A stretch of 64,000 bases of DNA from an uncultured bacterium (GTDB taxonomy: Bacteria; Patescibacteriota; Minisyncoccia; Phycocordibacterales; UBA2100). Below the pieces are notes generated by a model that had not been told where the DNA came from, did no database searches, and worked only from the letters and a program-made list of their open reading frames with translations. The stretch spans positions 5,184-69,183 of the forward strand of contig CAIJXH010000007.1 of NCBI GenBank assembly GCA_903824595.1, read 5' to 3'. Every line of letters starts with the position of its first letter. Position 1 is the first letter of the stretch. Both the position numbers and the translations under genes were made by a program. Positions 4,838-30,925 of this stretch are shown here, one piece after another.

Positions 4838-4905
4838 AACAGCGGAGCGATGCGAGGCGAGTACGCCGAGCCGCGAGCTGGTGTCCAGACCGAAACGAGC
4901 GACGG
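4838..4905. repeat. GC-rich ~70 nt module; copy A of a dispersed repeat (see 30856-30925 and 12100-12180)
   Basis: GAACAGCGGAGCGATG...CCGCGAGCTGGTG is shared almost exactly with 30856-30925, about 80% identity over about 65 nt. It lies between tRNA-Gly and the duplicated tRNA 3' end. Confidence 0.5.
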
Positions 4906-4923
4906 CGAGTTTCGAGTCGCGGA

Positions 4924-4951
4924 CGATTCCCCGTACCCGCACAGACGAACA
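4924..4951 (+). repeat. Direct repeat (28 bp) of the tRNA-Gly 3' end plus 11 nt of flank
   Basis: CGATTCCCCGTACCCGCACAGACGAACA is identical at 4757-4784 (the T-loop to 3' end of tRNA-Gly plus flank) and at 4924-4951; an att-core-like duplication. Confidence 0.8.
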
Positions 4952-4967
4952 CGGCGCGTGTGGTACC

Positions 4968-6149
4968 ATGAAAGATATGTTCGCGCGTTTGTTTATGATC
5001 ACACTGTTTCTTGTGTATGCGGGGACGTGTTTTCCTGTATATGCGGTGATACGCCCTCCTGTCACGCCACTTGTATCAAATGGCATGGTGATTACCTTCT
5101 ATGTTCCGTATCATGGCGAGGGATGTGAGAATTCAATGGAGGGATGCGACCTCACGTCTCGTAGAGGACTTGATAATCGCGCGGTACCGCAAAGTCTCGA
5201 TCAAGTCAGGTTTGGACAGGCGACATACGTTACGCTTGCGTCGTGTCCAAACAATTACGGAAAATATTATGCAATCGGATCTATTACATACAAAAGTGCG
5301 CTTGACGATAAGATGTACACGGTAAAAGATGTTGTTGGCTATGTGCATGATACGGGTGGTGCGTTTAGAAATGGAGTCATGTACCATGGAACAGATGGAT
5401 GCAACAAAATAGATGTTGCTACTACCATTTGCACGAAATGCAAAACAAATGCTCAAGCGAGCGCGTATGCCACAGGCAACAATGTCCGATACAAGCCGTT
5501 CGGTCTTGGTGTGCCGCCCGCGGAAACTGAAGAAGAAGCTTCCTCTGATGATGAAACAGGACGCGCAGAAGAAAAAACTGCCGATAAAAATCAGCTCACT
5601 ACCATTGTAACGACGGCATCGCGCACGCAGCAATCAGCCGATCCAATGAATCTATCGTCACTTATTCAGACACTGGTATCGTCGGGTAATCAAGCGTCTC
5701 GCTCCGCGAGTACTATCAACACGCCTCAAGCGCGATCTCCGCTCGATGTGTTTTCAAACGCCGACCAGTCGCTTTTTATGAATACAGGAACTACAAATCA
5801 AAACGTACGCGACGGTAATGCGACGCAAGCGCTTACTGAATTGGCAAATAAGGATAGCCAAGCGACAGTAGACAATCAAACGTCCCGTGACCTTATGCCA
5901 ACCCGCACCACATCAGCGCAAGCGTTGCACGTCACGAATCAACCAACGGACACCGTTAGTCCACAGCTAAGCCAATCAGGAGCTCATGCATCACTTTCCA
6001 CCATACGTGATGGCGCGTATTTTACGGATCCACAGACAGCTGTTTCCGCACAGCCTCCTTTCACATCTTCTGATGCAGCAGGCACGCACGGTATACAAAC
6101 CATCCGTTGGGGACAATTGCAAGTTTCCCCGATTCCTGTTACAAGCTAA
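4968..6149 (+). CDS. Secreted 3D-domain protein (MltA/RlpA-like double-psi beta-barrel) with a Ser/Thr/Gln-rich C-terminal tail
   Basis: Signal-peptide-like N-terminus MKDMFARLFMITLFLVYAGTC. 3D-domain signature ...VGYVHDTGGAFRNGVMYHGTDGCNKIDV with three conserved Asp. Start chosen at the ATG at 4968; the track ORF begins upstream inside the tRNA-linked repeat region. Confidence 0.7.
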   Translation: MKDMFARLFMITLFLVYAGTCFPVYAVIRPPVTPLVSNGMVITFYVPYHGEGCENSMEGCDLTSRRGLDNRAVPQSLDQVRFGQATYVTLASCPNNYGKYYAIGSITYKSALDDKMYTVKDVVGYVHDTGGAFRNGVMYHGTDGCNKIDVATTICTKCKTNAQASAYATGNNVRYKPFGLGVPPAETEEEASSDDETGRAEEKTADKNQLTTIVTTASRTQQSADPMNLSSLIQTLVSSGNQASRSASTINTPQARSPLDVFSNADQSLFMNTGTTNQNVRDGNATQALTELANKDSQATVDNQTSRDLMPTRTTSAQALHVTNQPTDTVSPQLSQSGAHASLSTIRDGAYFTDPQTAVSAQPPFTSSDAAGTHGIQTIRWGQLQVSPIPVTS

Positions 6150-6153
6150 TCCC

Positions 6154-6465
6154 ATGACATTTATTCGTCGAGTCGAAGATTTTATGTGCGAGCACTGTGG
6201 CGCATGGGTGAAAGGTACGGGATATACCAACCATTGTCCGCGCTGTCTCTGGAGCAAGCATGTCGATGTTGATCCTGGTGATCGCCGTGCGCCGTGCAAT
6301 GCCATGATGGAGCCAATACGTATTGAGGGTACAACGCCGCACTATGTTGTCGTACATCACTGTGTTGCGTGTGGTTTTGAGCGTCGCAACAGAATAGACA
6401 CAGACGATAATCCAGACGCGATCATTTCTATCATCAACGCACACGTTCGTAAGAATGTCATATAA
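6154..6465 (+). CDS. RNHCP-domain small zinc-ribbon protein
   Basis: The sequence CEHCGAWVKGTGYTNHCPRCLWSKHVD...HHCVACGFE contains the literal RNHCP-type motif and paired CxxC pairs; 103 aa. Confidence 0.6.
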   Translation: MTFIRRVEDFMCEHCGAWVKGTGYTNHCPRCLWSKHVDVDPGDRRAPCNAMMEPIRIEGTTPHYVVVHHCVACGFERRNRIDTDDNPDAIISIINAHVRKNVI

Positions 6466-6505
6466 GCAGCTCGCGTTTCGTGTATTTTTCGTATAGGATA
6501 GCGCG

Positions 6506-7606
6506 ATGGCTTTGAGTATTGGCATCGTCGGGCTACCCAACGTGGGAAAATCCACGCTCTTCAACGCGCTCACGAAAAAAGGCGTACCGGCAGAGAATTA
6601 TCCGTTCTGCACGATCGATCCGTCGGTAGGCGTGGTGGCGGTGCCTGATCACAGAATTGATGCGCTATCAGACATGTCGCACACGCAAAAAAAAGTTCCC
6701 GCAATAGTGGAATTTGTCGATATCGCTGGACTGGTAAAAGGCGCTTCGGAGGGAGAGGGACTGGGCAACCAATTTCTCTCGCACATCCGTGAAGTGGATG
6801 CAATTGCCGAAGTGGTGCGCATGTTTGACGACGAAGACGTGCATCATGTGCATGGCGACGTCGATCCGCGCCGAGACATTGAGGTGATTGATCTTGAGCT
6901 GGTGCTTGCCGATATGCAGACCGTCGAGAAGCGGTTTGATCGCGTCTCGCGTGACGCAAAAGGAGGTGACAAGGATCTCATTGCCGAGCGCGATGTGCTT
7001 GCCAAGATTCTTCCTGTACTTCAGCAAGGCAAGCCTGCGCGCATTGTGGAGCTCACCGAGGAAGAGAAAAAAGTCGCAAAAGGTCTACATTTGCTCACCA
7101 TGAAGCCGATTTTGTACGTGCTCAACAGAAAAGCGGGCATGATCAATGTGGATGCTGAGGGCGGCGACCGCTGGCAAGCGTTCAAAGATTTTATCGCCAC
7201 GCAGGGTGCGCAGTATGTGATTGTGGACGCGGGTGTGGAGCGCGACTTATCCGATGTACACGACGAAGAGCGTGCCGATTTCCGCCGCGAGCTCGGCGTA
7301 GCCGACGACGGACTCGACGCGCTCATAAAAGCAAGTTACTCGCTACTCGGTCTCATTTCATTTCTCACCACTGGGGAAGCGGAGACGCGCGCGTGGACAA
7401 TCTCACGCGGCGCTACTGCACCCGAAGCCGGTGCCGCTATCCACACCGATTTTCGCGACAAATTCATCCGCGCTACGGTCATTCGTTGGGATGTATTACT
7501 TCAAGAGGGTTCGATGGCAAAAGCGCGTGAAAAAGGGCTTGTACGCACGGAAGGGAAGGAATATGTGGTGCAGGATGGCGACGTGATGGAGTTTATGCAC
7601 AGCTAA
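6506..7606 (+). CDS. ychF: Ribosome-binding ATPase YchF (Obg-family GTPase/ATPase)
   Basis: [23 protein letters not shown], a TGS-like C-terminal domain; 366 aa, typical YchF length. Confidence 0.92.
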
Positions 7607-7634
7607 AGCATGGCATCCTGGGTGGTGTGATAGG

Positions 7635-8132
7635 ATGGAGCCTATGCGCAAAATCTTGCCGGCGAAAAAGGTGAAATCGACGAAAACGGATCATCACGCT
7701 GTGTTGCGTGCCGTCACGTATATTATGGAACATATGGCGACGCAGGAGGATGTGCGGGCGATCCGTCTGGAGATGGCGACCAAGCTCGCTACACGCAAAC
7801 ACATCGACGCACTACACAACGACTTCGAAATCATGGCGGAGGATATTGATTCGCTCAAAGCGGATGTGGATGTCTTGAAAACCGACGTTGCCGAAATCAA
7901 AAAAGAATTATCGGCAACAAAAACAGATGTGCTCACGTTCAAATATGAAACCGCCGAGAATTTCGTCGCGATCCGCGCGGAAATGGCGACGAAAGATCAT
8001 CTTTCGATGATGAAAGAAGAAATCATCGAGCGTCTGATGCCGACCGAACAAGCCGTCGACACCGACGCGACGACGATCGTCGGGCACGAACGACGCATCA
8101 CGCACCTTGAAAGACAAGTAGCAGTAGCCTAA
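7635..8132 (+). CDS. Hypothetical coiled-coil protein
   Basis: 165 aa with heptad-like repeats (DIDSLKADVDVLKTDVAEIKKELSATKTDV); no recognisable enzymatic motif. Confidence 0.45.
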   Translation: MEPMRKILPAKKVKSTKTDHHAVLRAVTYIMEHMATQEDVRAIRLEMATKLATRKHIDALHNDFEIMAEDIDSLKADVDVLKTDVAEIKKELSATKTDVLTFKYETAENFVAIRAEMATKDHLSMMKEEIIERLMPTEQAVDTDATTIVGHERRITHLERQVAVA

Positions 8133-8142
8133 CGCACCATAT

Positions 8143-9141: not shown

Positions 9142-9146
9142 CACTC

Positions 9147-11999
9147 ATGAAGCAGTACGATCACACAAAGATAGAGAAGAAATGGCAAAAAGAGTGGACG
9201 AAAAAAAAGCTGTATAAAACCGCCGACACGGTGAAAGGTAAAAAGAATTTCCACCTGCTCCTCGAGTTCCCCTATCCGTCCGGCAATTTGCACATCGGGC
9301 ACTGGTACGCCTTTGCGGTGCCCGACATTCTGGCGCGCACACTGCGAATGCAGGGAAAGAATGTGCTGTTCCCGTTTGGCTTCGACGCCTTTGGTTTGCC
9401 CGCCGAAAATGCCGCGATCAAGCGCGGACTCAATCCGCGCATTTGGACGTATCAAAACATGGCACACATGAAAAAGCAGATCGAAAGCTGTGGCGCGTCG
9501 CTCGATTGGTCGCGCGAGGTAGTTACCTGTGATCCATCCTACTATCGTTGGACGCAATGGATGTTTACGCAATTTTTCAAAAAAGGACTTGCGTACCAGA
9601 AAGAGACACCTGCCAACTGGTGCCCTTCGTGCAAGACCGTGCTCGCCAACGAGCAGCTCGTGGCAGGGAAGTGCGAGAGATGCGGCACCGAGGTGGAACA
9701 GCGCCAGATGCTTCAGTGGAATCTTGGTATTACGAAATATGCCGACCGCCTTACCGACGACCTCGCTGCCATCGACTGGCCCGAGCAGATCAAAGAAGCG
9801 CAACGCAATTGGATCGGGCGAAGCGAAGGAGCGGAGATTGATTTCAAGCTAACAATGGGCGAGAACATAACCGTCTTCACCACCCGTCCCGACACGCTTT
9901 TTGGTGCGACGTATCTCGTGCTTGCACCAGAACACCCTCTCGTAGCTCAATTCTACACAAGTCAGACTTGTGTAAATAGAGATGAAGTAGAAATGTATGT
10001 CAGACAAGCGAAGAAGAAGACCGATCTGGAACGACAGACGGAGCAAAAAGACAAAACGGGCGTCGAGCTCAAGGGTGTGAAGGCCATCAATCCTGCGACG
10101 GGAAAAGAAATCCCTGTGTGGATTGCCGATTATGTGCTTGGTCACTACGGCACCGGTGCCATTATGGCGGTGCCCGCACATGACGAGCGTGATTTTGCAT
10201 TTGCAAAAAAGTTCGGGTTGCCGATCGTGAATGTAATCGAGCCTCTTTCTGTTGATCTTGAAGGAGTGAGTCGCGCTCGACTCGACATGCCGTTTGTGGA
10301 GCGTCAGACCATTATCGCGTTTGTAAAACATTGGTCAGAAGACTCGTATCTTATTTTGGACTGGAAGCAGGTGGGGTGGCATTCGGGTGTTACGGGGGGA
10401 GTTGAAGATGGTCAAACACCGGAAGAGGCGGCGCGTGCGGAAATACACGAAGAAACAGGGTATCGCAACCTCAAGCTCCTACGAGTGTGCGGAAAAGGGC
10501 ATGAGAAATTTTTCCATGTTCCCAAAAATGTCAATCGATTGACCCACTATCAATGCTTTTTGTTTCAGCTTGAAAACGATGAGCGTGATGTGATTTCCGA
10601 CGATGAAGCACAAAAACATTCAATGCGATGGGTTCCTGCGCATCTTATCGAACATACTCTTACTGCCGCTGCGCAACGTTTTGAGTGGCGCATGCTTCAA
10701 TGTGAAGGTGCATACTGCGGTGATGGCGTACTACATAACTCCGGAGTATTCTCCGGACTCAATACAGAAGAAGCTGGAAAAAAAATGACAATGGCGTTTG
10801 GTCGCCCGAAGAAAACCTACCGCCTGCGCGACTGGGGTGTGTCGCGGCAGCGGTATTGGGGTGTGCCGATTCCGATTATCCATTGCGAAAAGTGCGGTGC
10901 GGTGCCGGTGCCCGACAAGGACTTGCCGGTGAAATTGCCGGAGGTGAAAGATTATTTGCCCACCGGTGATGGCAAATCGCCACTCGCAAAGGTGGAGAAA
11001 TGGGTCAGCGTGAAGTGTCCGCAGTGCAAAGGAAAAGCCAAACGTGAGACAGACACACTCGACACGTTCGTGGATTCTTCGTGGTACTTCTTGCGCTACG
11101 CCGATCCGAAGAACAAAACGAAATTCGCCGATCCAAAAAAGCTTAGTGCATGGATGCCGGTCGATCTCTACTCGGGTGGCGCGGAACACACTACCATGCA
11201 CCTCCTGTATTCGCGCTTCTGGCAAAAGGCGCTCTATGATTTGAAATTGGTCAAAGACAGCGAGCCATACACGCGCCGTATGAACCGCTCCCTCATCCTC
11301 GGACCCGACGGGCAGAAGATGAGCAAATCAAAAGGCAACGTGATCGATCCCGACGATGTGGTGAAGCGTCTCGGAGTCGACACAGTGCGCATGTATCTCG
11401 CCTTCGTGGGTCCGTACAACGAAGTGGCGAGCTATCCGTGGAATCCAGACGGCGTGGTGGGCGTGCGGCGATTTTTGGAGCGCGTGTGGCGTGCCGGGGA
11501 ATTGGTGGGGAAGAAGGAGGTCGCGACACTTGATGGCATCTTGCACAAGACGATCAAGAAAGTGGGCGACGACAACGCCGCGCTCAAATTCAACACCGCC
11601 ATCAGCGCACTCATGATTCTCCTGAATGCGATCGAAAAAGAGAAGGCGATAGGCACGAAACAGTGGGCGATCGTGCTGCGGCTGCTCGCGCCGTTTGCGC
11701 CGCACGTGGCGGAAGAATTGTGGCGCGCGGCAGGCAACAAAAAATCCATCCATCTCGAAACGTGGCCGAAATTTGATCCACAGAAACTCATCGACGAATC
11801 CGTGGTGATCGGCATACAGATCAACGGCAAAACGCGCGGCGAGGTTGCCATTGCCGCTGGCACCAGCAAGGAGGAAACAGAGAAAGCGGCGCGCGCGGCT
11901 ATCGCCGCGCGCCTTGAAGGCAAGCACATTCTCCGCACCATCGTCGTCCACAATCGTCTCGTGAATTTTGTTGTGAAGGAGGAATCGTCCCGCGACTAA
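9147..11999 (+). CDS. leuS: Leucyl-tRNA synthetase with an embedded Nudix-like domain (aa ~366-526)
   Basis: HIGH motif (PYPSGNLHIGHWY), KMSKS (KMSKSKGN), and the LeuRS-specific blocks YRLRDWGVSRQRYWG and DTFVDSSWYFLRY. The protein is 950 aa against about 800-860 for canonical LeuRS; the extra segment carries GGVEDGQTPEEAARAEIHEETGY, a Nudix-box-like motif. Confidence 0.95.
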   Translation: MKQYDHTKIEKKWQKEWTKKKLYKTADTVKGKKNFHLLLEFPYPSGNLHIGHWYAFAVPDILARTLRMQGKNVLFPFGFDAFGLPAENAAIKRGLNPRIWTYQNMAHMKKQIESCGASLDWSREVVTCDPSYYRWTQWMFTQFFKKGLAYQKETPANWCPSCKTVLANEQLVAGKCERCGTEVEQRQMLQWNLGITKYADRLTDDLAAIDWPEQIKEAQRNWIGRSEGAEIDFKLTMGENITVFTTRPDTLFGATYLVLAPEHPLVAQFYTSQTCVNRDEVEMYVRQAKKKTDLERQTEQKDKTGVELKGVKAINPATGKEIPVWIADYVLGHYGTGAIMAVPAHDERDFAFAKKFGLPIVNVIEPLSVDLEGVSRARLDMPFVERQTIIAFVKHWSEDSYLILDWKQVGWHSGVTGGVEDGQTPEEAARAEIHEETGYRNLKLLRVCGKGHEKFFHVPKNVNRLTHYQCFLFQLENDERDVISDDEAQKHSMRWVPAHLIEHTLTAAAQRFEWRMLQCEGAYCGDGVLHNSGVFSGLNTEEAGKKMTMAFGRPKKTYRLRDWGVSRQRYWGVPIPIIHCEKCGAVPVPDKDLPVKLPEVKDYLPTGDGKSPLAKVEKWVSVKCPQCKGKAKRETDTLDTFVDSSWYFLRYADPKNKTKFADPKKLSAWMPVDLYSGGAEHTTMHLLYSRFWQKALYDLKLVKDSEPYTRRMNRSLILGPDGQKMSKSKGNVIDPDDVVKRLGVDTVRMYLAFVGPYNEVASYPWNPDGVVGVRRFLERVWRAGELVGKKEVATLDGILHKTIKKVGDDNAALKFNTAISALMILLNAIEKEKAIGTKQWAIVLRLLAPFAPHVAEELWRAAGNKKSIHLETWPKFDPQKLIDESVVIGIQINGKTRGEVAIAAGTSKEETEKAARAAIAARLEGKHILRTIVVHNRLVNFVVKEESSRD

Positions 12000-12021
12000 A
12001 ACTTTTTCGTCAAAAAGTTTT
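11998..12021 (+). terminator. AT-rich perfect hairpin immediately after leuS (AAAACTTTTT-cgtc-AAAAAGTTTT)
   Basis: A 10 bp perfect inverted repeat overlapping the leuS stop codon. The stem is AT-only, so it is weak as an intrinsic terminator and may be a protein-binding site. Confidence 0.25.
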
Positions 12022-12099
12022 GCCTGGGCACCGCCTCGCAGTTTTGCCTACTGACAAAACAGGACTCCGTCGATTCGATTGAAAATGGAATCGAGTCAA

Positions 12100-12180
12100 G
12101 CGCTCGAAATCGTGCCGCCGCACGATGTCTCCGCCTGACCACGCTCGCGCGACCCGCCGTACTCGACGAGTCCCCGCGCT
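12100..12180. repeat. GC-rich module; copy C, a diverged relative of the 4838-4905 and 30856-30925 modules
   Basis: CGAGTCAAGCGCTCGAAATCG... is partly similar to GTCGAGCAAGCTTGCGAGACC in copy B. As in A and B, it lies directly upstream of a partial tRNA 3' end copy. Confidence 0.35.
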
Positions 12181-12184
12181 CGCC

Positions 12185-12275
12185 GTTCGATTCCCCGTAG
12201 GGACCCGACAACGCCTAAAAGCCCGACACAATGTGTCGGGCTCCAAGGCGTTGTGACCCTACGGGGAATCGAACC
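12185..12275. repeat. Long inverted repeat: the tRNA-Glu 3' end and an inverted partial copy, flanking a perfect 9 bp-stem hairpin (12221-12241)
   Basis: GTTCGATTCCCCGTAGGG occurs on the + strand at 12185-12202 and as its reverse complement inside tRNA-Glu at 12258-12275. The arms extend to about 30 bp (…GACAACGCC / GGCGTTGTG…) around GCCCGACACAATGTGTCGGGC. Confidence 0.65.
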
Positions 12276-12325
12276 CCGATTTAAGCCTTGAGAAGGCTCC
12301 GTCCTAACCGTTAGACGATAGGGCC
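12254..12325 (-). tRNA. tRNA-Glu (anticodon CTC)
   Basis: The reverse complement gives GGCCCTA...TAGGGTC acceptor, anticodon stem GAGCC/GGCTT with loop TTCTCAA, T-arm GGGGTTCGATTCCCC, discriminator A. Confidence 0.8.
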
Positions 12326-12358
12326 ATTCAAGCAAAATACATCAAAAACATCTTTTGC

Positions 12359-12673: not shown

Positions 12674-12705
12674 GGCGAGATTATAGCATGCTATAGTTTC
12701 ATCGC

Positions 12706-12777
12706 GCCCTCGTAGCTCAATGGATAGAGCAGTCCCGTCCTAAGGGAACGATGTGGGTTCGATTCCTGCCGAGGGCA
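12706..12777 (+). tRNA. tRNA-Arg (anticodon CCT)
   Basis: Acceptor GCCCTCG/CGAGGGC, D-arm GTAGCTCAATGGATAGAGC typical of tRNA-Arg, anticodon loop GTCCTAA, T-loop TTCGATT, discriminator A. There is one mismatch at the base of the anticodon stem. Confidence 0.72.
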
Positions 12778-12778
12778 C

Positions 12779-14308
12779 CTATAATTCGAACTGGTTCATT
12801 GATGTGTCGCTAGATAATGCATTCTTGAGTCTCTTTTCTGGTATTCTTGACATAAGTGCGAAAAAGGCACCAACGAGCATTACGCAAGAGGCGAGCATGA
12901 AGATCGTGTGGTATGCGGTAATCTGGGCCTTGAGTTCGATAAGCGCGATGAATTGTTGGGTGGCGTTTTGTGTATGTGTGTATAGTTCGCTGTTGTTTAC
13001 TATGGATAATACGTTGGATTCTGTGGTGTTTTTGAGTACGGTGCCAAAAATTGCTATACCGAATGCTCCCGCGATGTTGCGTACGAGCGCCAAGACTGAA
13101 GACGCTACGCCCATCTCGCTTTCTGGGACGAGTGAGGCGATCGCGTTCGTGCGTTGTGCCATGCCGAAACCAAGTCCAAACGACATGATAAAAAGCGGGA
13201 TCATAAGATCGAGAATGCTTGAGCGTACGTCGAGCCACGTGAAGAGCGACATGCCTATCGCGGCAACAATCGTCGAGAAAGCAATCACGTATTGTGTTTC
13301 CACTTTGCCGGTGAGCGCTCCGCCAATTGGTGAAGAAAGCATAAAGCCTGCTGCCATGGGAATGAAGATGAGTCCTGATTGCGTCGCACTGTAGCCAAGA
13401 AAGGTTTGTGCAAAAATAGGCAGGAGAAAAACACTTCCCATCATCCCCATGAATACAATAAAGTTATTCCCCAGTGTGTTGACGAATGGTCCGTGTGTAA
13501 AAAATTTGAGATCAATGATCGGCTCGGGGTGATGTTTCTCGATGCGATAGAACACATAACCAAAACCAAAAATACCGAGATAGCACAATGCGCTCTCGTA
13601 CGAAATCCAACCCCATTCTGTTCCTTTGTCGAGTACCAATACGAGCGATGAGAGTGCGATACCAAGCATGCTCGCACCCCACCAATCGAAGGCATGGGAA
13701 CTTCGTTCGACTTTCGATTCTGGAATGTAGGCGAGCGCCATGAGAAGTCCGATGATGCCGACGGGAAGGTTGACGAGGAATACTGATCTCCAGCCAAATG
13801 TATCGATCAAAGGACCTCCTATCAAAGGACCAAGAACTGCCGAAGCGGCAAAGGCGGATGACCATATTCCAAGTGCTTGCGCGCGCTCTTTGCCCTCGGA
13901 AAATGTGAATGCGATGATCGCCATTGCGGTGGGATAATCGGCAGAACTCGCAATTGCTTGAATGACACGAAATACAATCATGCTTCCAAGATTCCACGCA
14001 AACCCTGCCAAGACAGATCCGAAAATGAAGAGTCCAAACCCTGCAATATAGACGCGCTTTCTGCCTGTTGTGTCGCCAAGCTTTCCCCAGATAGGGACGA
14101 AGACAGCATTTGCGAGAATGTAGGCTGTCGCAATCCATCCAGCGGCGCTTACGGTGATCGAAAAGTCCTCAATGATTTTCGGCAGTGCAAGATTGACGAT
14201 CGTTTGATCGAGACGACCGAGAAACGTTCCGACGATGACGGTAATAAGAATGAGCCAGCGCGAGCTGTCTTTGGGTGCAAGCGAAGCCCCTACTGTTTGA
14301 ATACCCAT
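12779..14308 (-). CDS. MFS transporter, DHA2 (EmrB/QacA) family, 14 TMS
   Basis: N-terminal LALPKIIEDF...GRLGD-like motifs (GKLGDTTGRKR), 509 aa, 14 hydrophobic segments. It is the last gene of the MarR-HlyD-HlyD-MFS operon. The track ORF 12753..13394(+) overlapping it and tRNA-Arg is spurious. Confidence 0.85.
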   Translation of the reverse strand: MGIQTVGASLAPKDSSRWLILITVIVGTFLGRLDQTIVNLALPKIIEDFSITVSAAGWIATAYILANAVFVPIWGKLGDTTGRKRVYIAGFGLFIFGSVLAGFAWNLGSMIVFRVIQAIASSADYPTAMAIIAFTFSEGKERAQALGIWSSAFAASAVLGPLIGGPLIDTFGWRSVFLVNLPVGIIGLLMALAYIPESKVERSSHAFDWWGASMLGIALSSLVLVLDKGTEWGWISYESALCYLGIFGFGYVFYRIEKHHPEPIIDLKFFTHGPFVNTLGNNFIVFMGMMGSVFLLPIFAQTFLGYSATQSGLIFIPMAAGFMLSSPIGGALTGKVETQYVIAFSTIVAAIGMSLFTWLDVRSSILDLMIPLFIMSFGLGFGMAQRTNAIASLVPESEMGVASSVLALVRNIAGAFGIAIFGTVLKNTTESNVLSIVNNSELYTHTQNATQQFIALIELKAQITAYHTIFMLASCVMLVGAFFALMSRIPEKRLKNALSSDTSMNQFEL

Positions 14309-14919: not shown

Positions 14920-14921
14920 AT

Positions 14922-16310: not shown

Positions 16311-16316
16311 ACTGTG

Positions 16317-19530: not shown

Positions 19531-19534
19531 GTGG

Positions 19535-21457: not shown

Positions 21458-21468
21458 CGTCTCTCGCC

Positions 21469-22936: not shown

Positions 22937-23008
22937 TCCGGGGTAACTCAATGGTAGAGTGGCTCCCTGTTAAGGAGTAAGTTGTGGGTTCGAGTCCCAC
23001 CCCCGGAG
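22937..23008 (+). tRNA. tRNA-Asn (anticodon GTT)
   Basis: Acceptor TCCGGGG/CCCCGGA, anticodon stem GCTCC/GGAGT with loop CTGTTAA, T-arm GTGGGTTCGAGTCCCAC, discriminator G. Confidence 0.85.
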
Positions 23009-24566
23009 CCGAAGGTCGGATAATATACCACCCTGAAAAAACCCATTGTTTTGGGCTTTTTCAGTTTTTGGTGTTTTGTAGAAGGCTTCCTCTGCTTGCA
23101 AAAGTTCTGCAAACAAGGGGGAGGGAACGGAGGTTACTATAACCCCATCGGCAACCTCGAAGTGTTCCCAGAAAAACGCAAGGTATTGCCGCTTGAGATC
23201 AAATGATGCTTTCGTGTATGCGTGATAGATGTCGCGTGCCAGCAGCAGTACCTCCTGCGCGACATCTACATTCATGTCTCGCTGATCTTCCAGTCCAAGT
23301 AGGTCGTCGTCAATGTCTGTCATTTGAGTCGTGATCTCTTTTCGTATTCGAGTGAAATCTGCGTCTTGAATGACACCATCGAAGAGTTTATCCTCTGCGG
23401 TCTTTCGTTTGCCTTCAAGGGCGGTTCTCTTGTTCACGAGTGCTTGTCGCCGACCATCGTACCTCTTCCGCCTATCAAGAAAGATGTGTTTCGTCTTGTT
23501 TATGACGATATTGATGAACTCGTCCGAGAATTGCAGGTCTTTGAACTTTTCGGCAATCTTGCTTTCAAGATCGACTTGCTCGCAATACCGCCCGCACCCC
23601 ATCCTGTTGGAGCAATGGTAGTAAGCGATACCTTTTCTAATGCCACTCTGCGACATAGCGTTTTCCATGATTGGCACAGCGCACGAAACCAGAGAGGAGC
23701 CATTTATGCTTTCGCCTGCGGCACGCCTTGTGATTGTTGTGTTCAAGTATCGTCTGTACCTGATTGAATGTCGCCTCGTCGATGAGCGGCTCATGCTTGC
23801 CGTTCTTGTTGTGTACCTTTCCCCACTTCACTTCACCGAGGTAGATGCGATTACGCAACAAATCATAGATGCGGCTCGGTGATAAGGGGTTCCCTTTGTG
23901 GCTTCGCAGTCCGCGACGACTCATCGCGTCGGCAAGGTCGTATACGCTGTATACACCAGTTGCATAGAGACGGAAGAGTTCGGTAATGAGTGGAGCGGCT
24001 ATCGGGTCTGGGACGATTATCTTGCGCCCAACACGACTCACGTTTGGGTCAGGATTATCGGTGTTGACATATCCTGCGGGAGGAATGGTGGGGAAGTAGC
24101 CCGCCTCGGTTTTTGCGTAGAGTGTACTTTTCACCTTGTCCGATATTTGGTCGCGGTAATACTGATTGATGTTCGCGTGCATTCGATCCGACATTTTTGA
24201 GTGAGCATTGTTTTCGGGGCTTGCCTGTTGAATGTAGATGAGTCGGATGTCGTTTTCGAAGATAAGATCCATGAATTCGATATGCGCTCGTTCGTTGCGA
24301 AACATACGATCCGACGCAAGGGTAATAACTGCCTCGATTTTCTTTGTTGTGATGAGGTTTCTGATGTGATTCAGCCCAGGTCGTTCGGCTTTATGACCGC
24401 TAATGCCGCCATCATCGAGAATCTCTAGCAGATCGTACCCGTCGCGCTCTGCACGTTCACGACAGAGCTTTTCCTGTACCTCCAAGGATAGTCCATCATC
24501 TTTTTGATCTTTTGAACTTACCCTTACGTAACCGACTGCCAATGGTTTTTCTTTTTTATGATTCAT
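22970..24566 (-). pseudogene. Large serine recombinase, split by a frameshift into two overlapping ORFs (23637..24566 N-terminal part; 22970..23794 C-terminal part)
   Basis: The N-terminal ORF carries the resolvase catalytic domain (AVGYVRVSSKDQ...) and the recombinase domain, ending ...GFVRCANHGKRYVAEWH. The second frame continues with the zinc-ribbon part (YYHCSNRMGCGRYCEQVDLESKI) and a coiled coil; together about 535 aa. The last ~12 codons run through the tRNA-Asn gene. Confidence 0.7.
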
Positions 24567-24653
24567 AGTGCGTATAATAAGTACTAATGTTTAGAAGTAA
24601 TGTGTACGCGAGTGTGGATACATGAGTTGTCTGAATCATCCACACTCAATCCG

Positions 24654-25664
24654 CTACTCATCGGAGGAAACACTAGATGGGTTTTCGTCCGATCCGACAG
24701 TTATCGAGTAATGTGCTTTGTTGTGTTTACTGGTTGTCCGTGCCAAACGCCCCTCGTCCACAAGTTGTGTGAGAGCCGAAGTGAGCACTGATCGGCTGAA
24801 GGCTTTTTCCACCGATTCGTCAATCTCTGTCAGGGAGAGTTCTGTAGCGTCTGTTTTTGCGAATGCTCCCATCACAGCGTTTTTTGCTTCATCCCGCTTC
24901 TCTCTTTGTTTGTCATATTCACCGATATATTCAAGACACACAGTGCCTAATGCAGTGTCCGCCATCACCTTTGCGGCAAACTCATCTTGCACGGGTGCCT
25001 GTCGAAGTTTATGTTGAGCAAATATGACGACACGCTCTTTCTTCTGGTACGAGAGCGCTATGTGGGAATCCACTGCCGCGAAGATGTCGGATGAGCCACG
25101 CAAGCTATTCGGCGACGTTGCACCCTGAAACAATTCTTTGCGATGATGGTGAGTACATATTACGCTCACGCCCTTGGCAGTGATTCTTTTCAGGTTGCCG
25201 AACACTACAGCAATCTGTCTCGAGTCGTTTTCATCTCCTTTGTGGAATCGAATAAGCGAATCTAAAACAATGAGTCCAATGCTCTCCTGTTCAACGTATC
25301 TAAGGAGTGCTGCGACATGCTCCTCCTTGTCTAACTGGAAGCCCTCGTCAAAGTTGAACCACACAAATGCATCCATCGATGCGCCAAGTGATATGAGTCG
25401 CTCTTTGATGTGCTTCGCATGGTTTTCTTTGTCGAGAATGAGTACATTGCGTTGGTGGGGGATTGTGAATTGTCCGAGGAATGGTTTGCGTCCAGCCACG
25501 CACAACGCGAGATGCAAGCACGCCCACGTCTTGTAACTTGCAGGCATTCCCGAGATGACCGTGATGGTCTGTGTCGGGATCAGTCTCTCGACGAGCCAAT
25601 TATCGGTGCCATATTCTGTACCGAGAATGTCGCGTACTGTCGTCGCTTCGAATTTCTTTTCCAT
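24654..25664 (-). CDS. RecA-like P-loop ATPase (AAA_25 / RepA-like helicase-loader family), typical of plasmid and integrative-element replication modules
   Basis: A Walker A-like ISGMPASYKTW, a Walker B LIVLDSLIRFH, and a C-terminal acidic tail. Confidence 0.65.
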   Translation of the reverse strand: MEKKFEATTVRDILGTEYGTDNWLVERLIPTQTITVISGMPASYKTWACLHLALCVAGRKPFLGQFTIPHQRNVLILDKENHAKHIKERLISLGASMDAFVWFNFDEGFQLDKEEHVAALLRYVEQESIGLIVLDSLIRFHKGDENDSRQIAVVFGNLKRITAKGVSVICTHHHRKELFQGATSPNSLRGSSDIFAAVDSHIALSYQKKERVVIFAQHKLRQAPVQDEFAAKVMADTALGTVCLEYIGEYDKQREKRDEAKNAVMGAFAKTDATELSLTEIDESVEKAFSRSVLTSALTQLVDEGRLARTTSKHNKAHYSITVGSDENPSSVSSDE

Positions 25665-25684
25665 ATCAGTGAATATGTTACTTG

Positions 25685-25912
25685 CTAATGGTTTCTAGGA
25701 GATTGCTCCTCCTCCAATCTTTCCTGTGCTTTTCGCTCGGCACCCTGTTCAAGGATTTGCGCCGCCAGAAGCTCGGCAAAAAGCAGTGCTGCCTGTGTTA
25801 TCCGCTCATGGTTCTTGTATGCGTTATTGTTGATAATGTCTCCCATGCGCGGGTAGTTTCCCAAAAGAAAACTGCCCAAACTATTGGGCAAGATAGAGCG
25901 ACGATAGGGCAT
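25685..25912 (-). CDS. Hypothetical small protein (75 aa)
   Basis: An ORF in the intergenic space of the element's minus-strand operon; no recognisable motif. Confidence 0.3.
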   Translation of the reverse strand: MPYRRSILPNSLGSFLLGNYPRMGDIINNNAYKNHERITQAALLFAELLAAQILEQGAERKAQERLEEEQSPRNH

Positions 25913-25923
25913 CAGATTTTGCC

Positions 25924-26778
25924 CTATTCAGGGTACTCAACGATCATTAGATATTTACCTGCGCCCCTATCAGGATTCAGAACATCCACATGAATATCTT
26001 GTGATGACGCCTTTCTCAACTTACTTCGGATACGCCTCACATCATCGCGGAATTGATCTTTTTTGCGATTTGCAATTTTCAGCATTGCTTGGACGGAGGT
26101 AAGTGTTCCATCTCTGATCGACACATTACCGCGCTTCTCCATGCGATTCTCGAACAAGATCTCCACAATTTTGCCCTGAGAACGATAGAAAGGGACTTTG
26201 AATTTTCCATAGTCCAAATACCCATTCGCAAACTTCAAATGACATGCCTCGCGATTTCGGACGGATTTTTTCAAGTCATGTTCTATTTTTTTCAGCTTCT
26301 GTGGCAAGGTAGCTCCATCGAAAGAGAAATTGGCAACAATTGCGTCGATGGTGAACGGACCATCCACGTCGGGAACCTCAACGACTTGTGATTTGAGATT
26401 CTTGATGACATCCATTTTCTCAAGTTCAATCAGGAATCTCTCTTTGATCATCGAAACCACTCGCATCGTTGGATTTACGGCAACTGCTGAAAACAGTCCG
26501 ACAACGAGTGTGTAATCATTCGGTGCGGGTTTTTTGGCACGAACAATGGACAGAAGTTTTTCAACCATCTCGAGTTGGTACTCACTCTGACGAGAATATA
26601 TGCCGCGTAAAAATTCCTCATCCATCCTATCCGTGATCAAACGGACTGGTGTCTTGGAAATGCGTCGCGCTGTCTCTAAATGCTGAATCTCGTGAATGAT
26701 CTCTGGCGCAAGATTATCAAATGGCGGATGATTCATAGTCATCAGTAGTTTCCAGTTTTTATGCCCTATATAGTACAT
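25924..26778 (-). CDS. Hypothetical protein (possible replication/initiator protein of the element)
   Basis: 284 aa, basic C-terminus; first gene of the minus-strand operon, beside a divergent intergenic region that holds hairpins. The start may be the internal Met at 26742. Confidence 0.45.
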   Translation of the reverse strand: MYYIGHKNWKLLMTMNHPPFDNLAPEIIHEIQHLETARRISKTPVRLITDRMDEEFLRGIYSRQSEYQLEMVEKLLSIVRAKKPAPNDYTLVVGLFSAVAVNPTMRVVSMIKERFLIELEKMDVIKNLKSQVVEVPDVDGPFTIDAIVANFSFDGATLPQKLKKIEHDLKKSVRNREACHLKFANGYLDYGKFKVPFYRSQGKIVEILFENRMEKRGNVSIRDGTLTSVQAMLKIANRKKDQFRDDVRRIRSKLRKASSQDIHVDVLNPDRGAGKYLMIVEYPE

Positions 26779-27022
26779 AAAAAACTAAAAACTACGAAAA
26801 GAATAGCGATAATGTCGCAATCGCTCTGCATCGGACAAAGACAGCCGCGCATAAACACGAGACGATAATCGAACCATTTGAACACTTTGATCATCCGCTT
26901 TTCGCAAGGGTGTGCGAACAGTGGTATAGTGGCGGGGTACGTTTCGGCGTACTCACACAACCAATATCGAGCCGCAAGGCTAGTGCCTAAACCATCGAGT
27001 CATCGGTGGCATGGTGCGAAAA

Positions 27023-27063
27023 CGTAAGTCACAGAAAACCCGTCATTCAGGGCGTGACTTACG
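27023..27063. promoter_or_regulatory. Perfect 10 bp inverted repeat (CGTAAGTCAC...GTGACTTACG) with a 21 nt spacer in the divergent intergenic region of the element
   Basis: It lies between divergently transcribed genes 25924..26778(-) and 27103..27720(+); a candidate operator or origin. Confidence 0.3.
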
Positions 27064-27102
27064 TTATAGGGGGAAACTCCTATATGACCGCAAGGTCTCC
27101 TG

Positions 27103-27720
27103 GTGGCGGGCTTTATGTTGGAACAAAAAACACAATTTATTCAGAATGAAGTACTTGGCTTGGTTATTCGAGGTGCATTTCCGCCGTACACTAAAATCTA
27201 TGCCAAGATTGCCACGGAAAAAAACAGGGCACGAATGCGACACATAATCCGTGAGAAGATTGTTGAAATGGCGGAATTGTATCGGCAAAAGCATGTTTCT
27301 CCCGAGGCACATGTTGATAACATCGAGACATTGCAAAAATATATCAATACGCAATGTTGTAATTTTTTGACGAAAGAAATCTCTTTCGGTATCGCTCAAA
27401 AACTATTGAATCTCTATCTAAAATATGAATGGTGCCTGAATAGATTCAATCACGATGTACATCCGCCACATTGTCCTGTGGACTCCATTGTAATCAAGCA
27501 AGCGAACAAGGAGGGTGCGAAAATACCACCAAAGCCGCCATGGTCTCAAATGGCAGCGAATGATTACCTGTACGCGATAGAAGAAATTGGCAGGGTGGCT
27601 AGTAAGTGCCAAAAGAATATGCCCGCATGGGAATTGGATATCTTCAATGCGAATAATCCTGCCTACGGATTTGATGTCAGTGTGGATAAATCGGTTGGAT
27701 TTTTATCGGATGGAAACTAA
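27103..27720 (+). CDS. Hypothetical protein
   Basis: 205 aa, several Cys (CCNF, HCPVD); no recognisable domain. The start could be the Met at 27115. Confidence 0.45.
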   Translation: MAGFMLEQKTQFIQNEVLGLVIRGAFPPYTKIYAKIATEKNRARMRHIIREKIVEMAELYRQKHVSPEAHVDNIETLQKYINTQCCNFLTKEISFGIAQKLLNLYLKYEWCLNRFNHDVHPPHCPVDSIVIKQANKEGAKIPPKPPWSQMAANDYLYAIEEIGRVASKCQKNMPAWELDIFNANNPAYGFDVSVDKSVGFLSDGN

Positions 27721-27742
27721 TATCGTATCGTACTAAAAAATC

Positions 27743-28837
27743 ATGAGAAACACATCATTCAAAATCTTTTTCGCGCTCGGCTTGTTTATTCTCATGCTTC
27801 CGCAATTTTCGTTTGCCGAGTTCACTTCAGATTTGCATTACGGTTCCACTGGTGCCGATGTTTCCGCGCTTCAAGAATTTCTTACCCAACAGAAAGTGTA
27901 TTCCGGTCCGACAAGTGGCAGTTTCTATTCACTCACCCTAGCGGGTGTAAAAAAGTTCCAATCTGCTGAAGGAATAACACCGGTGAGCGGCTATGTCGGA
28001 CGCGTAACGCGAGGAGTAATAAATCAAATTCTTGCAGGACAGGTTTCAACATCGGAAGAAAATGCCACTACGACGCGACCACCTGTGGATTTATCGCAAC
28101 AAAAAGATCAATCCTCCTCTATATCAAGTGTCTCACCAACTATTACACTTCCCAATGGTGCAATAGTGCGACTGAATACGGACGGTGCTGTTACTTCATA
28201 CACACCACCAACAACTCTTCGATCGTCAGTGGCAGAGCAAAATCAGAAATCTTCACGAGACATCACAACTCAAACACCGACACTGACCCCTCTTCCAACA
28301 CCATCAATAGCCATACCCACATCTTCGCCCATAATAGATTCATCTACCACATCGACTGTTGCTGTTGCGCGCGCTCTTACCATAGCAAATAGTCCGCACA
28401 CTGTTTCGAAAACGGTCGTTGTTGGTAGCCAAAGAGTATCCTTCGCGACAATCCAACTTGTTGCATCCGACTCGCCTTACGATATTTATGTAGGTGCACT
28501 GCCACTTATTCTCAATGTAGGAAATTCCGCAAAAGCAACTGACATTAGTGATTGTATGATATGGCTTAGTGGTAACCTGATCAATGCTGGCGCTAATATC
28601 GTGAGTTTTCCGAAGGTTGGCACAAAGACAATTTTTAGTTTTGACCCAACTGTAATGGTGCCAAAATACGGCGCACTCTCACTCCCTCTCACCTGCAATA
28701 TCGCAACCTCTTCTACACCTGGCGGAACATATTCATGGTCTGTCGACACGAATACAACAGACTATATTGGTCTTTCTTCCGCAACCATAATCAACGTAGC
28801 AGATGGTCCATCGCCAACAATTACTATCTCAAACTGA
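27743..28837 (+). CDS. Secreted protein with an N-terminal peptidoglycan-binding domain, a Ser/Thr/Pro linker and a C-terminal beta-rich domain
   Basis: A signal peptide (MRNTSFKIFFALGLFILMLPQFSFA), a PG_binding_1-like block (GSTGADVSALQEFLTQQKVYSGPTSGSFYSLTLAGVKKFQSAEGI), and a T/S/P-rich linker. Confidence 0.6.
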   Translation: MRNTSFKIFFALGLFILMLPQFSFAEFTSDLHYGSTGADVSALQEFLTQQKVYSGPTSGSFYSLTLAGVKKFQSAEGITPVSGYVGRVTRGVINQILAGQVSTSEENATTTRPPVDLSQQKDQSSSISSVSPTITLPNGAIVRLNTDGAVTSYTPPTTLRSSVAEQNQKSSRDITTQTPTLTPLPTPSIAIPTSSPIIDSSTTSTVAVARALTIANSPHTVSKTVVVGSQRVSFATIQLVASDSPYDIYVGALPLILNVGNSAKATDISDCMIWLSGNLINAGANIVSFPKVGTKTIFSFDPTVMVPKYGALSLPLTCNIATSSTPGGTYSWSVDTNTTDYIGLSSATIINVADGPSPTITISN

Positions 28838-28854
28838 GAGACATCCTTCAAACC

Positions 28855-29691
28855 ATGCAGGACTTGCTGTCATTTATAGTGAGACGTTTGGGTTGGAGGG
28901 CGTTGCATCTGATACTACCATTGAGCATCATTGCTCTCTCGGTGGCGGGCTGTGTGGCGATTGTGTACTACACGAGTAGACCTGCCGACAGTCTCTTGTG
29001 TCCAAGCGCATACACCACCACCGAAGAGGCGACGGCATCCTTCCAAGCATTCACGAATAACTTTTACGACGCACATCCAGATGCCTCACTGAGTGATCTT
29101 GCTGCCGCACGCCACGACTTCTATGTATCGCATCACTGCACGCAAGAACTTGCGGCATACCAACAAGCAGTAGATGGTAACGCTGATCCTGCGACAATGA
29201 AGATGATAGACCAAGCGATTGGAAAGGTTTTGACAGCAATAAAGGACGCCGAATCAAAACGCCCGCCCGGCATTGGAGCGTCACCCAGCGAAAAAGAAAT
29301 CTACGAAAATCCCTATATCAAGCACATCCGTACAGCCTTACACGGGTACTTGGACGGGACGAATGATGGGGTTGAAGTGGATAGTCTTGCTCTCGGCACA
29401 CAGAATGAGCGTTGCGGTCTTGAACACTTTGACAAATCGTATTACAGGAGCAAATTTGTCATTTACAGTGCCGAAAACAATGAGTACGGAGGAGTCGAAG
29501 CCAACATAATTTTTATTGATAAGCCCAACGCTGTATTCTGGGCTTGGGTCTATCAATATGGTGGTGATGAGAATGGCGATAAGAAATATGCCTTGAGAGG
29601 CTTTTGCGAGCAGAAATTACCTGCGGAACATAAAGCCGAATTGCTCAAGACAATGTCGGAGTTTGCACACGAATCCAAATACTCCATTTGA
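28855..29691 (+). CDS. Hypothetical membrane-anchored protein
   Basis: An N-terminal TM (LHLILPLSIIALSVAGCVAIVYY) followed by a soluble domain. Start at the ATG at 28855; the track ORF starts upstream inside the previous gene. Confidence 0.5.
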   Translation: MQDLLSFIVRRLGWRALHLILPLSIIALSVAGCVAIVYYTSRPADSLLCPSAYTTTEEATASFQAFTNNFYDAHPDASLSDLAAARHDFYVSHHCTQELAAYQQAVDGNADPATMKMIDQAIGKVLTAIKDAESKRPPGIGASPSEKEIYENPYIKHIRTALHGYLDGTNDGVEVDSLALGTQNERCGLEHFDKSYYRSKFVIYSAENNEYGGVEANIIFIDKPNAVFWAWVYQYGGDENGDKKYALRGFCEQKLPAEHKAELLKTMSEFAHESKYSI

Positions 29692-29912
29692 TCGGTGTTG
29701 AAGACGATGCTTCAAAGTGCGCACATCAGTCTAATGTTGGAACCTGCCACAAACAATATACGGTTCCACCTTTTCTTTTTGCTGCGAAGCGTTTAGGTGG
29801 GAATGATAAGGTGAGAGCGGGCGGAGTCATGTTATGTGAATCCGTGCGCAATCAAATACAACTGTGCGGGCGGCTCGCATTCTGTCTCCACACATGCCAT
29901 AATTTCAACGGC

Positions 29913-30067
29913 AAGAACATTGCTTCAATCCCTGCACTACCGCTGGCTATTTATATGTCCGTAAGCCACGCGGGTTGGTACTTGAAAAGTGCCTTCATCG
30001 TCCTCAGATCTACGTAGAGCGGAGAATCGATACAGTAATGCAGGGATTGAAAGAATGTCGTTGCTTG
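29913..30067. repeat. Imperfect ~30 bp inverted repeats (29913-29940 and 30035-30067) separated by ~95 bp in a non-coding stretch
   Basis: CAAGAACATTGCTTCAATCCCTGCACTAC pairs with GTAATGCAGGGATTGAAAGAATGTCGTTGCTTG; the arms are about 85% complementary. Confidence 0.4.
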
Positions 30068-30225
30068 TCGCCAACCCTATGACAGAGTATCACAAAAACG
30101 AACAATGGGAAGTAAAATGCATACAAACAAGAGAACATAGCATGTATTTACAGAGATTTTTATGACATTTAGAGATACTGGTAAGGGTTGTTGACAGGAT
30201 AAATGGGAGGAGTAAAATCAGCTGT

Positions 30226-30600
30226 ATGGAAGAATATAACTTTGATGAGTTCAATTCGGTTGGGACAAGATTCAATCCAACAATTAGTCTTGGCGATTCG
30301 GAAAGGTTTTATTTGGGCGGTTCCTTCTGTAGGAAATACAACATATCCGATATGGTTGGGGTAAAACTTATGTACGATAAAGCAAAAAATGCTGTGGGTT
30401 TTAGGTTCTTGAAGCAGAAAGAAGACGGTATGATTGGCCTAAAGAGACTTGGTAAAGATTCCGCGTACATCAATGCAAAAGCATTTCTTGGCATGTATGA
30501 TATAGAGTATAAGAAGTTCTCGAATCGTTACTTACCAAAAGAGGTCAATAGTGGAGATAAGAAGATTCTGGTCATTGAACTCAAAGAGACAATGAAGTAG
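30226..30600 (+). CDS. Hypothetical protein (124 aa)
   Basis: A complete ORF preceded by a GGGAGGAG RBS-like purine run; no recognisable domain. Confidence 0.45.
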   Translation: MEEYNFDEFNSVGTRFNPTISLGDSERFYLGGSFCRKYNISDMVGVKLMYDKAKNAVGFRFLKQKEDGMIGLKRLGKDSAYINAKAFLGMYDIEYKKFSNRYLPKEVNSGDKKILVIELKETMK

Positions 30601-30855
30601 ATTCGCTAAAGTTGTCGAAAATATCGTTTCGTAAAACGGACTACTATCAATGTTGATCAACAGATGTTTCCATTCGTTGCATCAATCTGATCATTATCAG
30701 CCGATGTTCCATCTGCAACATGAATTCTCTGTTGAAAAATAGGGGTATATTTATGTCATGTTCCGGGAGCCGCTGACATACATCGCCTACAGGGCGATTC
30801 TGTCATATGCGGCTCCGAGGGAGACAAGCGCCTGGACGCTTGTCGAGTGGGACGA

Positions 30856-30925
30856 GAACAGCGGAGCGATGTCGAGCAAGCTTGCGAGACCGCGAGCTGG
30901 TGCCTAACCCGAGCCGAGTGTCGAT
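30856..30925. repeat. GC-rich module; copy B, closely related to 4838-4905
   Basis: GAACAGCGGAGCGATGTCGAGCAAGCTTGCGAGACCGCGAGCTGGTG lies in a 450 bp non-coding stretch, about 20 nt before the imperfect tRNA-Asn 3' end copy. Confidence 0.5.

Follow-up and report, generated by a model that had tools for sequence, protein, structure and literature searches.

The 64,000-nt stretch of DNA analysed here (the window) belongs to an uncultured bacterium of the Patescibacteriota (contig CAIJXH010000007.1 of assembly GCA_903824595.1, positions 5,184 to 69,183 of the forward strand) and contains four tRNA genes, identified with ARAGORN: Gly(ccc) at 4704-4775(+), Glu(ctc) at 12253-12325(-), Arg(cct) at 12706-12779(+) and Asn(gtt) at 22937-23010(+). 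Behind those for Gly, Asn and Glu lie four copies of a GC-rich element: 4828-4938(+), which we call copy 1; 30847-30957(+), copy 2; 12087-12197(-), which is decayed; and 11974-12084(-). These elements fold on the tRNA-sense strand and constitute a real family, conserved, structured and tied to tRNA-type 3' ends, whose copies are gained or lost at orthologous sites. The block at their centre, module M1, is most likely the conserved domain of a roughly 150-nt element that resides in the 3' trailers of tRNA and transfer-messenger RNA (tmRNA) genes of many ultra-small bacteria of the candidate phyla radiation (CPR)/Patescibacteria type and acts, or at the least folds, as RNA.

Element copies at three tRNA genes

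The cognate of copy 1 is tRNA-Gly(ccc) (69.7 bits with the Rfam tRNA model). X1 (4757-4784, +), the first copy of a 28-nt repeat whose exact duplicate stands at 4924-4951, takes in the part of this tRNA from the T loop onwards (positions about 56-73) together with 10 trailer nt. A 21-nt spacer (4775-4795) separates the tRNA from the strand acc5', GTGGGTA (4796-4802, +), which in the minimum-free-energy fold pairs with TACCCGC (4934-4940) in a 7-bp acceptor-like stem. After a single A comes hairpin P1 (4804-4825, +), with 9 bp and a 4-nt loop, which is placed between the acceptor-like and T-like stems and whose pairs covary; it is followed by GT and by X', CGGGGAATCGAAC (4828-4840, +), the reverse complement of tRNA-Gly positions 53-65 and the 5' strand of the closing stem P2. 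Module M1 itself (4841-4923, +) is recognised by covariation, by its fold and by a match to the family model (4828-4938, 107.3 bits). Its conserved core is AGCGGAGCGATG / CCGCGAGCTGG, which forms helix Pc with a GGA/GA internal loop, and its hairpins are P3 (4853-4870), P4 and P5 (4889-4917, where an A is bulged and G.A pairs stand in tandem). The second repeat copy, X2 (4924-4951, +), consists of CGATTCCCCGTACCCGCA and 10 further nt, contains a discriminator A at 4941, and supplies the 3' strand of both P2 and the acceptor-like stem.

The minimum-free-energy fold of 4797-4942 is the consensus fold (-79.3 kcal/mol, z = -6.2). Its parts are the acceptor-like stem of 7 bp, P1, a stem of 10 bp in which five pairs are added to the T stem (4828-4837 with 4924-4933), and a three-way junction that carries Pc with P3, and P4 with P5. 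The 139 nt between the two 28-nt repeats hold no credible open reading frame (ORF), and no promoter-like or terminator-like site was found between tRNA-Gly and copy 1.

Copy 2 has parts that match those of copy 1, built from tRNA-Asn sequences. Its cognate, tRNA-Asn(gtt), now lies 7.8 kb away, with an island of lower GC (about 7.8 kb, 23011-30762; junction repeat CC(C/G)GGAGCCG) inserted in the 3' end of the tRNA acceptor. At the right junction of the island a remnant of the original tRNA-Asn 3' end, CCGGGAGCCG (30763-30772, +), starts a hairpin that leads into copy 2, and it pairs across this hairpin with the acc5'-like strand CGGCTCCGAGGG (30810-30821, +). Then come P1 (30825-30842, +), X' (GTGGGACGAGAAC) with module M1 (30847-30943, +; model match 30847-30957, 87.5 bits) and X2 (GAGTCTACCCCGGAGC; 30944-30959, +), which repeats the tRNA-Asn 3' end directly and in degenerate form. 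This X' is complementary to the T arm of tRNA-Asn and contains tandem G.A. Since the island's junction repeat lies upstream of copy 2, the copy does not belong to the island, nor is the module an arm of it; the same junction indicates that the island was inserted between tRNA-Asn and an already existing element.

The remaining two copies form a tandem array on the minus strand behind tRNA-Glu(ctc) (12253-12325, also found by Rfam). A palindromic hairpin with 23-nt arms (12208-12254) is the inverted repeat between the tRNA and the first copy, whose X' (12185-12204, -) is, without interruption, the reverse complement of that tRNA's 3' end. The module that follows (12087-12184, -) is decayed and scores 9 bits in a 501-nt search (E = 0.018). 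The fourth copy (11974-12084, -; 57.9 bits, E = 4e-15) ends opposite the last 8 codons of the leucyl-tRNA synthetase (LeuRS) gene at 9147-11999(+).

A preliminary description of this DNA had reported three similar GC-rich blocks, each followed by a partial tRNA 3' end. We compared them by Smith-Waterman local alignment, scored against 1000 dinucleotide shuffles. An alignment of 4837-4902 with 30856-30921 needs no gaps, keeps an offset of 26019 throughout and contains exact blocks of 16 and 13 nt, and copies 1 and 2 reach a score of 44 (shuffles 17.8 +/- 3.0; none of the 1000 reached it), so for 4838-4905 and 30856-30925 the similarity stands. The third block (12100-12180) is similar on the minus strand, with a score of 31 that 2 of the 1000 shuffles reach; read on the plus strand, as first proposed, it scores 14, equalled by 889 of 1000, and its orientation had to be reversed. 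Likewise, the tRNA end downstream of the block holds for Gly and Asn and fails for Glu: because the third copy lies on the minus strand, the tRNA-Glu copy seen at 12185 is an inverted tRNA end that precedes the element. The higher GC was confirmed (0.62-0.67 in the elements and about 0.42-0.52 in the local surroundings), and the search for further copies yielded the one at 11974-12084(-) and many more in related loci. What had been overlooked is the inverted copy of the cognate tRNA end that stands 5' of every copy (4828-4840 and 30847-30859 in copies 1 and 2).

The element family and its fold in related genomes

The pattern AGCGGAGCGATG-N16-28-CGCGAGCTGG was found in 53 stretches of a species-representative genome collection, 43 of them judged from record titles to be metagenome-assembled genomes (MAGs) of Patescibacteria type. 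Carriers include Saccharibacteria, Kaiser-, Yanofsky-, Vogel-, Uhr-, Magasanik-, Kerfeld- and Moranbacteria and Paceibacterota. The other 10, from different phyla and GC-rich organisms, reach just 14-36 bits under the family model and are probably there by chance. With a covariance model derived from 37 units we detected 59 copies at E < 1e-13 in the window and those 43 loci (loci examined in other genomes bear L-numbers), and a further 9 in an unbiased set of 80 loci chosen solely for a LepA relative, where these 9 matches stand among 111 tRNAs (~8%). Altogether, 67 copies are distributed over the window and 50 related loci. Many lie at or within about 400 nt of MAG contig ends, which would fit assemblies breaking at the elements. 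The window sequence recurs without differences in MAG GCA_903933615.1 and four other metagenome assemblies; strain-level variation around copies 1 and 2 was not found, every contig with the neighbouring proteins being identical to the window.

Of the 92 tRNA or tmRNA genes in the pattern-selected loci and the window, 45 are followed within 200 nt by a copy on the same strand. Any isotype may carry one; all five tRNAs of L014 do, as do two tmRNA genes. The spacing between tRNA and element is uniform across dozens of genomes. The unit, of about 140-170 nt, has the order hairpin, strand complementary to the acceptor 3' strand, P1, strand complementary to the T stem and T loop, three-way junction with an almost invariant core (Pc with P3, P4 with P5), and direct tRNA 3' end. 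This direct repeat begins in the T loop near C56 and ends at the tRNA end or up to 10 nt past it; a rule that it ends at the apex of the spacer hairpin fits the window copy and L078 and, on our reading, does not fit L018, L026 and L029.

By this arrangement each unit forms the acceptor-plus-T-stem minihelix of the neighbouring tRNA, where P1 takes the place at which the D and anticodon arms exit and M1 that of the T loop. The geometry of acceptor strand, P1 and GY is kept in most copies of types A and B, and in the predicted fold the 7-bp acceptor-like stem, with its discriminator, is stacked on the T-like stem, as in a tRNA. The 5' strands of the element follow the complement of the cognate 3' strand. 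That they are direct copies of the tRNA 5' strand could mostly be rejected, wobbles of the tRNA becoming Watson-Crick pairs in L026, L042, L007 and L081; an exception is L005, which keeps the G3.U70 pair of tRNA-Ala. An origin of P1 as a remnant of the cognate D or anticodon arm was also rejected (similarity 5.45 for cognate and 5.62 for non-cognate pairs). As P1 is not tRNA-derived and the 5' strands are cognate, cognate and element-specific segments are interleaved.

Covariation supports the fold. In a MAFFT alignment 81.8% of the paired cells are complementary, compared with 65.5% in shuffles and 31-45% for slid partners, and 222 cells, a number that 0 of 500 shuffles reach, are changed on both sides compared with 72. 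In the alignment of the 67 copies, which was fitted to the model and is hence biased towards the structure, 86.4% of the cells pair (62.2% in shuffles) and 577 are changed on both sides (172 in shuffles). The core helix covaries also in copies found without the exact core pattern, with A-U in 48 and G-C in 16 at one pair and with G-C in 53, C-G in 8 and A-U in 3 at a second; examples are GCC/GGC and GUC/GAU in L014 and L017. In P2, P3 and P5 a recurrent tandem G.A (5'-GAG/5'-CGA; 176 G.A cells) replaces Watson-Crick pairs. G-T mismatches outnumber A-C mismatches by 51:5 in P3 and P5 together, which places the fold on the tRNA-sense strand. The conserved, covarying structure that the preliminary description suggested looking for was thus found, and these strand-specific changes (577 against 172; 51:5) differ from the conservation expected of a double-stranded protein site.

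Gain and loss can be read from orthologous sites. The site between tRNA-Gly(ccc) and a glutaredoxin-like gene is filled in L078, with an exact 27-nt repeat, and is empty in L083 and L089 (67 and 127 nt, no element); the tRNA-Gly of L062, which differs by one base from that of the window, is also without an element. Tandem arrays occur behind the window's tRNA-Glu and in L023, L036 and L017, and in L017 the second copy is joined to the tRNA-end mimic of the first. Between the orthologous elements of L020 and L047 the whole of P5 is replaced, which suggests exchange between copies.

At nine further tRNAs the same frame (spacer hairpin, acc5', A, P1, GY, T5' strand and direct tRNA end) surrounds unrelated inserts: L036 7060-7190(-), L042 3825-4050, L047 4217-4360, L068 8387-8590, L101 2634-2770, L116 6899-7100, L075 6368-6480, L016 3036-3215 and L026 3706-3815. 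Several of these have in common a hairpin motif GUAC...stem-UGUAA-stem, and the inserts may be further undescribed RNA classes.

Possible nature of the element

The reading that we put first, and hold with middling confidence on the basis of sequence comparison, is that of a tRNA-mimicking RNA element, probably co-transcribed with its tRNA and multiplying by duplication of tRNA 3' ends, whose conserved junction would be functional. Read-through from the tRNA promoter would transcribe it. The tRNA mimicry would offer a handle to RNase P, RNase Z and possibly the CCA-adding enzyme, which would release and stabilise a ~146-nt RNA, and the conserved junction would be the working part, acting with some partner. 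A duplicative event in the DNA at a tRNA-type 3' end would produce each new copy, with the order X, reverse-complement X, module and X, and existing copies would swap segments by recombination.

Several points weigh against this reading. The T loop is absent from the fold, the module being in its place and the 3' half of the T loop pairing with X'; RNase P and the CCA-adding enzyme recognise the T loop. In the equilibrium fold of the whole tRNA-Gly-plus-element sequence, X' pairs with the tRNA's own 3' half, a predicted pairing that would misfold tRNA-Gly unless folding is kinetic. About half of the copies have, on visual reading, a terminator-like hairpin and T-run in the spacer, so that read-through would be limited. 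The mismatches of the closing stem P2 (34:27) have no bias of G-U over A-C, and its complementarity may be owed to an inverted duplication at the DNA level, not to selection on RNA. Moreover, a type C subfamily of the module has no tRNA-derived stems and starts at the tRNA's last bases, and in three genomes type C stands just after the stop codon of topA (topoisomerase I; L023 4319-4427(-), L024 5978-6088(-), L025 4805-4917(+)), which indicates that tRNA mimicry is not essential to the module.

We regard it as rather unlikely that a miniature, non-autonomous integrative element uses the unit as a recombination site of folded single-stranded DNA, in which the X'/X2 stem would mimic the duplex of a tRNA-gene 3' end, the module would be a variable terminal structure, and a recombinase supplied in trans would insert the ~165-nt unit at T loops of tRNA or tmRNA genes. 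Such a site agrees with the order X, reverse-complement X, variable region, X, with a repeat that begins in the T loop, with the use of both tRNA and tmRNA genes as targets, with arrays that grow on the mimic and orthologous sites that are filled or empty, and with a scaffold that holds several unrelated inserts instead of M1. A structure on a single strand and P2 mismatches free of G-U bias point the same way, and loops such as GCGAAGC form very stable mini-hairpins in DNA. However, no recombinase is linked to the copies, and the only one in the window belongs to the island that interrupts a copy. The almost invariant unpaired core and the covarying helices that M1 keeps across distant lineages typify a functional RNA, type C stands behind topA without tRNA-like stems, 2.9 million viral contigs lack the strict core pattern, and the orientation is always that of the upstream gene, which fits a dependence on transcription.

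A cis-acting 3'-end device, that is, a processing stalk of RNase III type, an exonuclease block or a new self-cleaving ribozyme, which would define or protect the 3' ends of tRNA, tmRNA and topA transcripts, is in our judgement unlikely. The element does lie always directly downstream of tRNA, tmRNA or topA on the same strand, type C begins at the tRNA's last nucleotides, the long flanking complementary strands resemble rRNA processing stems, and the three-way junction has conserved unpaired nucleotides. Nevertheless, the share of about 8% of tRNAs in the unbiased set (9 matches, 111 tRNAs), together with the orthologous tRNAs that have no element, implies that tRNA maturation can do without it. 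Known ribozyme families give no match, permissive thresholds included, and the tandem arrays would have no obvious use for such a device.

Quite unlikely, in turn, is a guide role for the tRNA-complementary strands, by which the RNA or a folded single strand would pair with a tRNA-type 3' end and direct its own insertion. If this were true, the element would be a programmable mobile RNA gene for tRNA ends, driven by a protein in trans or by a ribozyme and carrying varied RNA cargos.

The proposal of the preliminary description, that the blocks are a recombinase-binding arm (attP arm sites) left by larger tRNA-targeting integrative elements, two of the loci keeping the arm alone, is very improbable: although tRNA 3' end direct repeats are the classical footprint of integrative elements (PMC9897764; Williams 2002 cited there), do flank the element (exact over 28 nt at tRNA-Gly, similar in most related loci), and a serine-recombinase island sits between tRNA-Asn and copy 2, the island junction repeat (30763-30772) lies upstream of the element and separate from it, neither a recombinase with cargo between the repeats nor an arm adjoining its own junction is present, the tRNA-Gly repeats enclose 139 gene-free nt, the tRNA-element spacing is uniform in dozens of genomes where deletion remnants would vary, the compensatory variation is strand-specific, unlike that of double-stranded protein-binding arms, and viral contigs have no match to the strict core pattern. 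Its alternative suggestion, a small structured RNA or a miniature inverted-repeat transposable element (MITE) that uses tRNA ends, is supported in substance.

Likeness to known systems and further features of the loci

A search of the whole window with Rfam 15 at gathering thresholds returned tRNAs, RNase P RNA and LOOT RNA only, and nothing over the elements. At permissive thresholds the sole weak match to the element at copy 1 is permuted tmRNA (14.9 bits, where 47 are required), a near-miss that spans the tRNA end and acc5'; for the L014 elements nothing came near threshold, and the few sub-threshold matches look like chance. Among 2.9 million viral contigs the strict core pattern has 0 matches, and a loose version has 80 loci, which are chance matches with no match to the model; a phage origin was therefore rejected. 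Hammerhead, hepatitis delta virus (HDV)-like and hatchet ribozymes, group II domain V, box C/D and the kink-turn were compared with the core by eye, and none fits. A full-text literature search, in which subscription journals are thinly covered so that an earlier description is possible, found no description of the element, and the family of structured RNA elements is apparently undescribed so far.

With the attL/attR tRNA-fragment repeats of integrative elements (prophages, ICEs, genomic islands; Reiter 1989 and Williams 2002, cited in PMC9897764), the element shares a repeat of the tRNA 3' end starting from the T loop, tRNA and tmRNA targets, tandem arrays and an intact tRNA. It differs in its small unit (about 140-170 nt) without integrase, in the internal inverted copy of the tRNA end, in an interior that is a conserved covarying fold, and in that viral contigs lack its core pattern.

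Integron attC sites and the attP(+) of CTX phage also have inverted repeats around a variable structure, one folded strand and mimicry of the target duplex. In contrast, the element lacks the context of integron integrase or Xer, cassette ORFs and a consensus of R and L boxes, and its enclosed domain is highly conserved. The attC motifs RYYYAAC and GTTRRRY are not present, X' having ..TCGAAC or ..GAAA at its end and X2, which starts at C56, lacking GTT, and neither integron integrase nor cassettes were seen beside the copies.

Like MITEs, repetitive extragenic palindromic (REP) sequences and bacterial interspersed mosaic elements (BIME), BOX and Correia elements and Rickettsia palindromic elements, all small non-autonomous repeats with an RNA fold, the element is short, non-coding, GC-rich, hairpin-forming, intergenic, modular, patchy among relatives, and multi-copy within and between genomes. 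Unlike these, it has no fixed terminal inverted repeats: the flanks vary with the neighbouring tRNA, whose end the inverted repeats copy. It also keeps a strict place and orientation behind tRNA-type 3' ends and has no known parent transposon; in the loci examined, no autonomous parent element with a transposase was seen.

Processing handles of tRNA-like structure are known from the MALAT1 mascRNA, plant tRNA-snoRNA dicistrons, bacterial small RNAs of tRNA 3' external spacers, YrlA Y RNAs and the tRNA-like domain of tmRNA. As in these, a non-tRNA RNA is here linked to a tRNA or shaped like one, probably within a tRNA transcript; its predicted acceptor-like stem of 7 bp is stacked on a T-like stem and terminates in a discriminator base. 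The element departs from them by having a domain of ~85 nt for the T loop and one hairpin for the D and anticodon arms, and by stems copied from the adjacent tRNA. The intervening sequences (IVS) of bacterial 23S rRNA offer another parallel, in which a hairpin loop is replaced by an extended structured stem, with sporadic occurrence and, at some sites, selfish ORFs, as with the LAGLIDADG gene of one related locus; the hairpin altered here is a duplicated tRNA end and not, as in IVS, the functional RNA itself.

If truly undescribed, the family would be a widespread and strongly conserved structured RNA for a very large, little-understood bacterial branch with few known non-coding RNAs. Its architecture is unusual in that each copy borrows the acceptor and T stems of the preceding tRNA and one scaffold accommodates several inserts. 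This raises the questions of how the matching strands arise at each new tRNA, and whether tRNA mimicry is a natural scaffold for the expression and processing of small RNAs. For annotation in practice, the copies are a source of partial tRNA genes and spurious ORFs. A 446-aa ORF called in public assemblies (4794-6149, +) begins inside copy 1; this is an annotation artefact produced by the element, and the likely true start is the ATG at 4968. For the 133-aa protein that adjoins tRNA-Gly, a homologue search returned near-identical sequences only.

Other insertions were observed at the same kind of site. Genes for LAGLIDADG homing endonucleases lie between tRNA and element in L040 (461-1291, -) and L046 (932-2266); in L040 the ORF begins 2 nt past tRNA-Lys, and between it and the element stands the 3' fragment of a non-cognate tRNA. 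The T loop may accordingly be a hot spot of recombination used by several selfish elements. In L093 (6662-6730), a mini tRNA-like fragment with T arm and acceptor strands comes after tRNA-Gly(ccc), followed by a 1.6-kb ORF; this represents a further type of insertion at that tRNA end.

The island at tRNA-Asn encodes the serine recombinase (23637-24566, -), the sole recombinase in the window, whose ORF overlaps a second one (22970-23794), possibly through a frameshift. It also encodes an AAA_25 protein and a peptidoglycan-binding protein, among other genes, and a LOOT RNA (Rfam RF03000; 26984-27098, +; 74.9 bits) lies in it between divergent gene blocks. The RNase P RNA of the window (166-562, +; bacterial class A) scores 115 bits against a threshold of 100, which fits a divergent, CPR-type organism. 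The LeuRS encoded at 9147-11999(+) has an embedded NUDIX domain at residues 410-505 (E = 5e-13).

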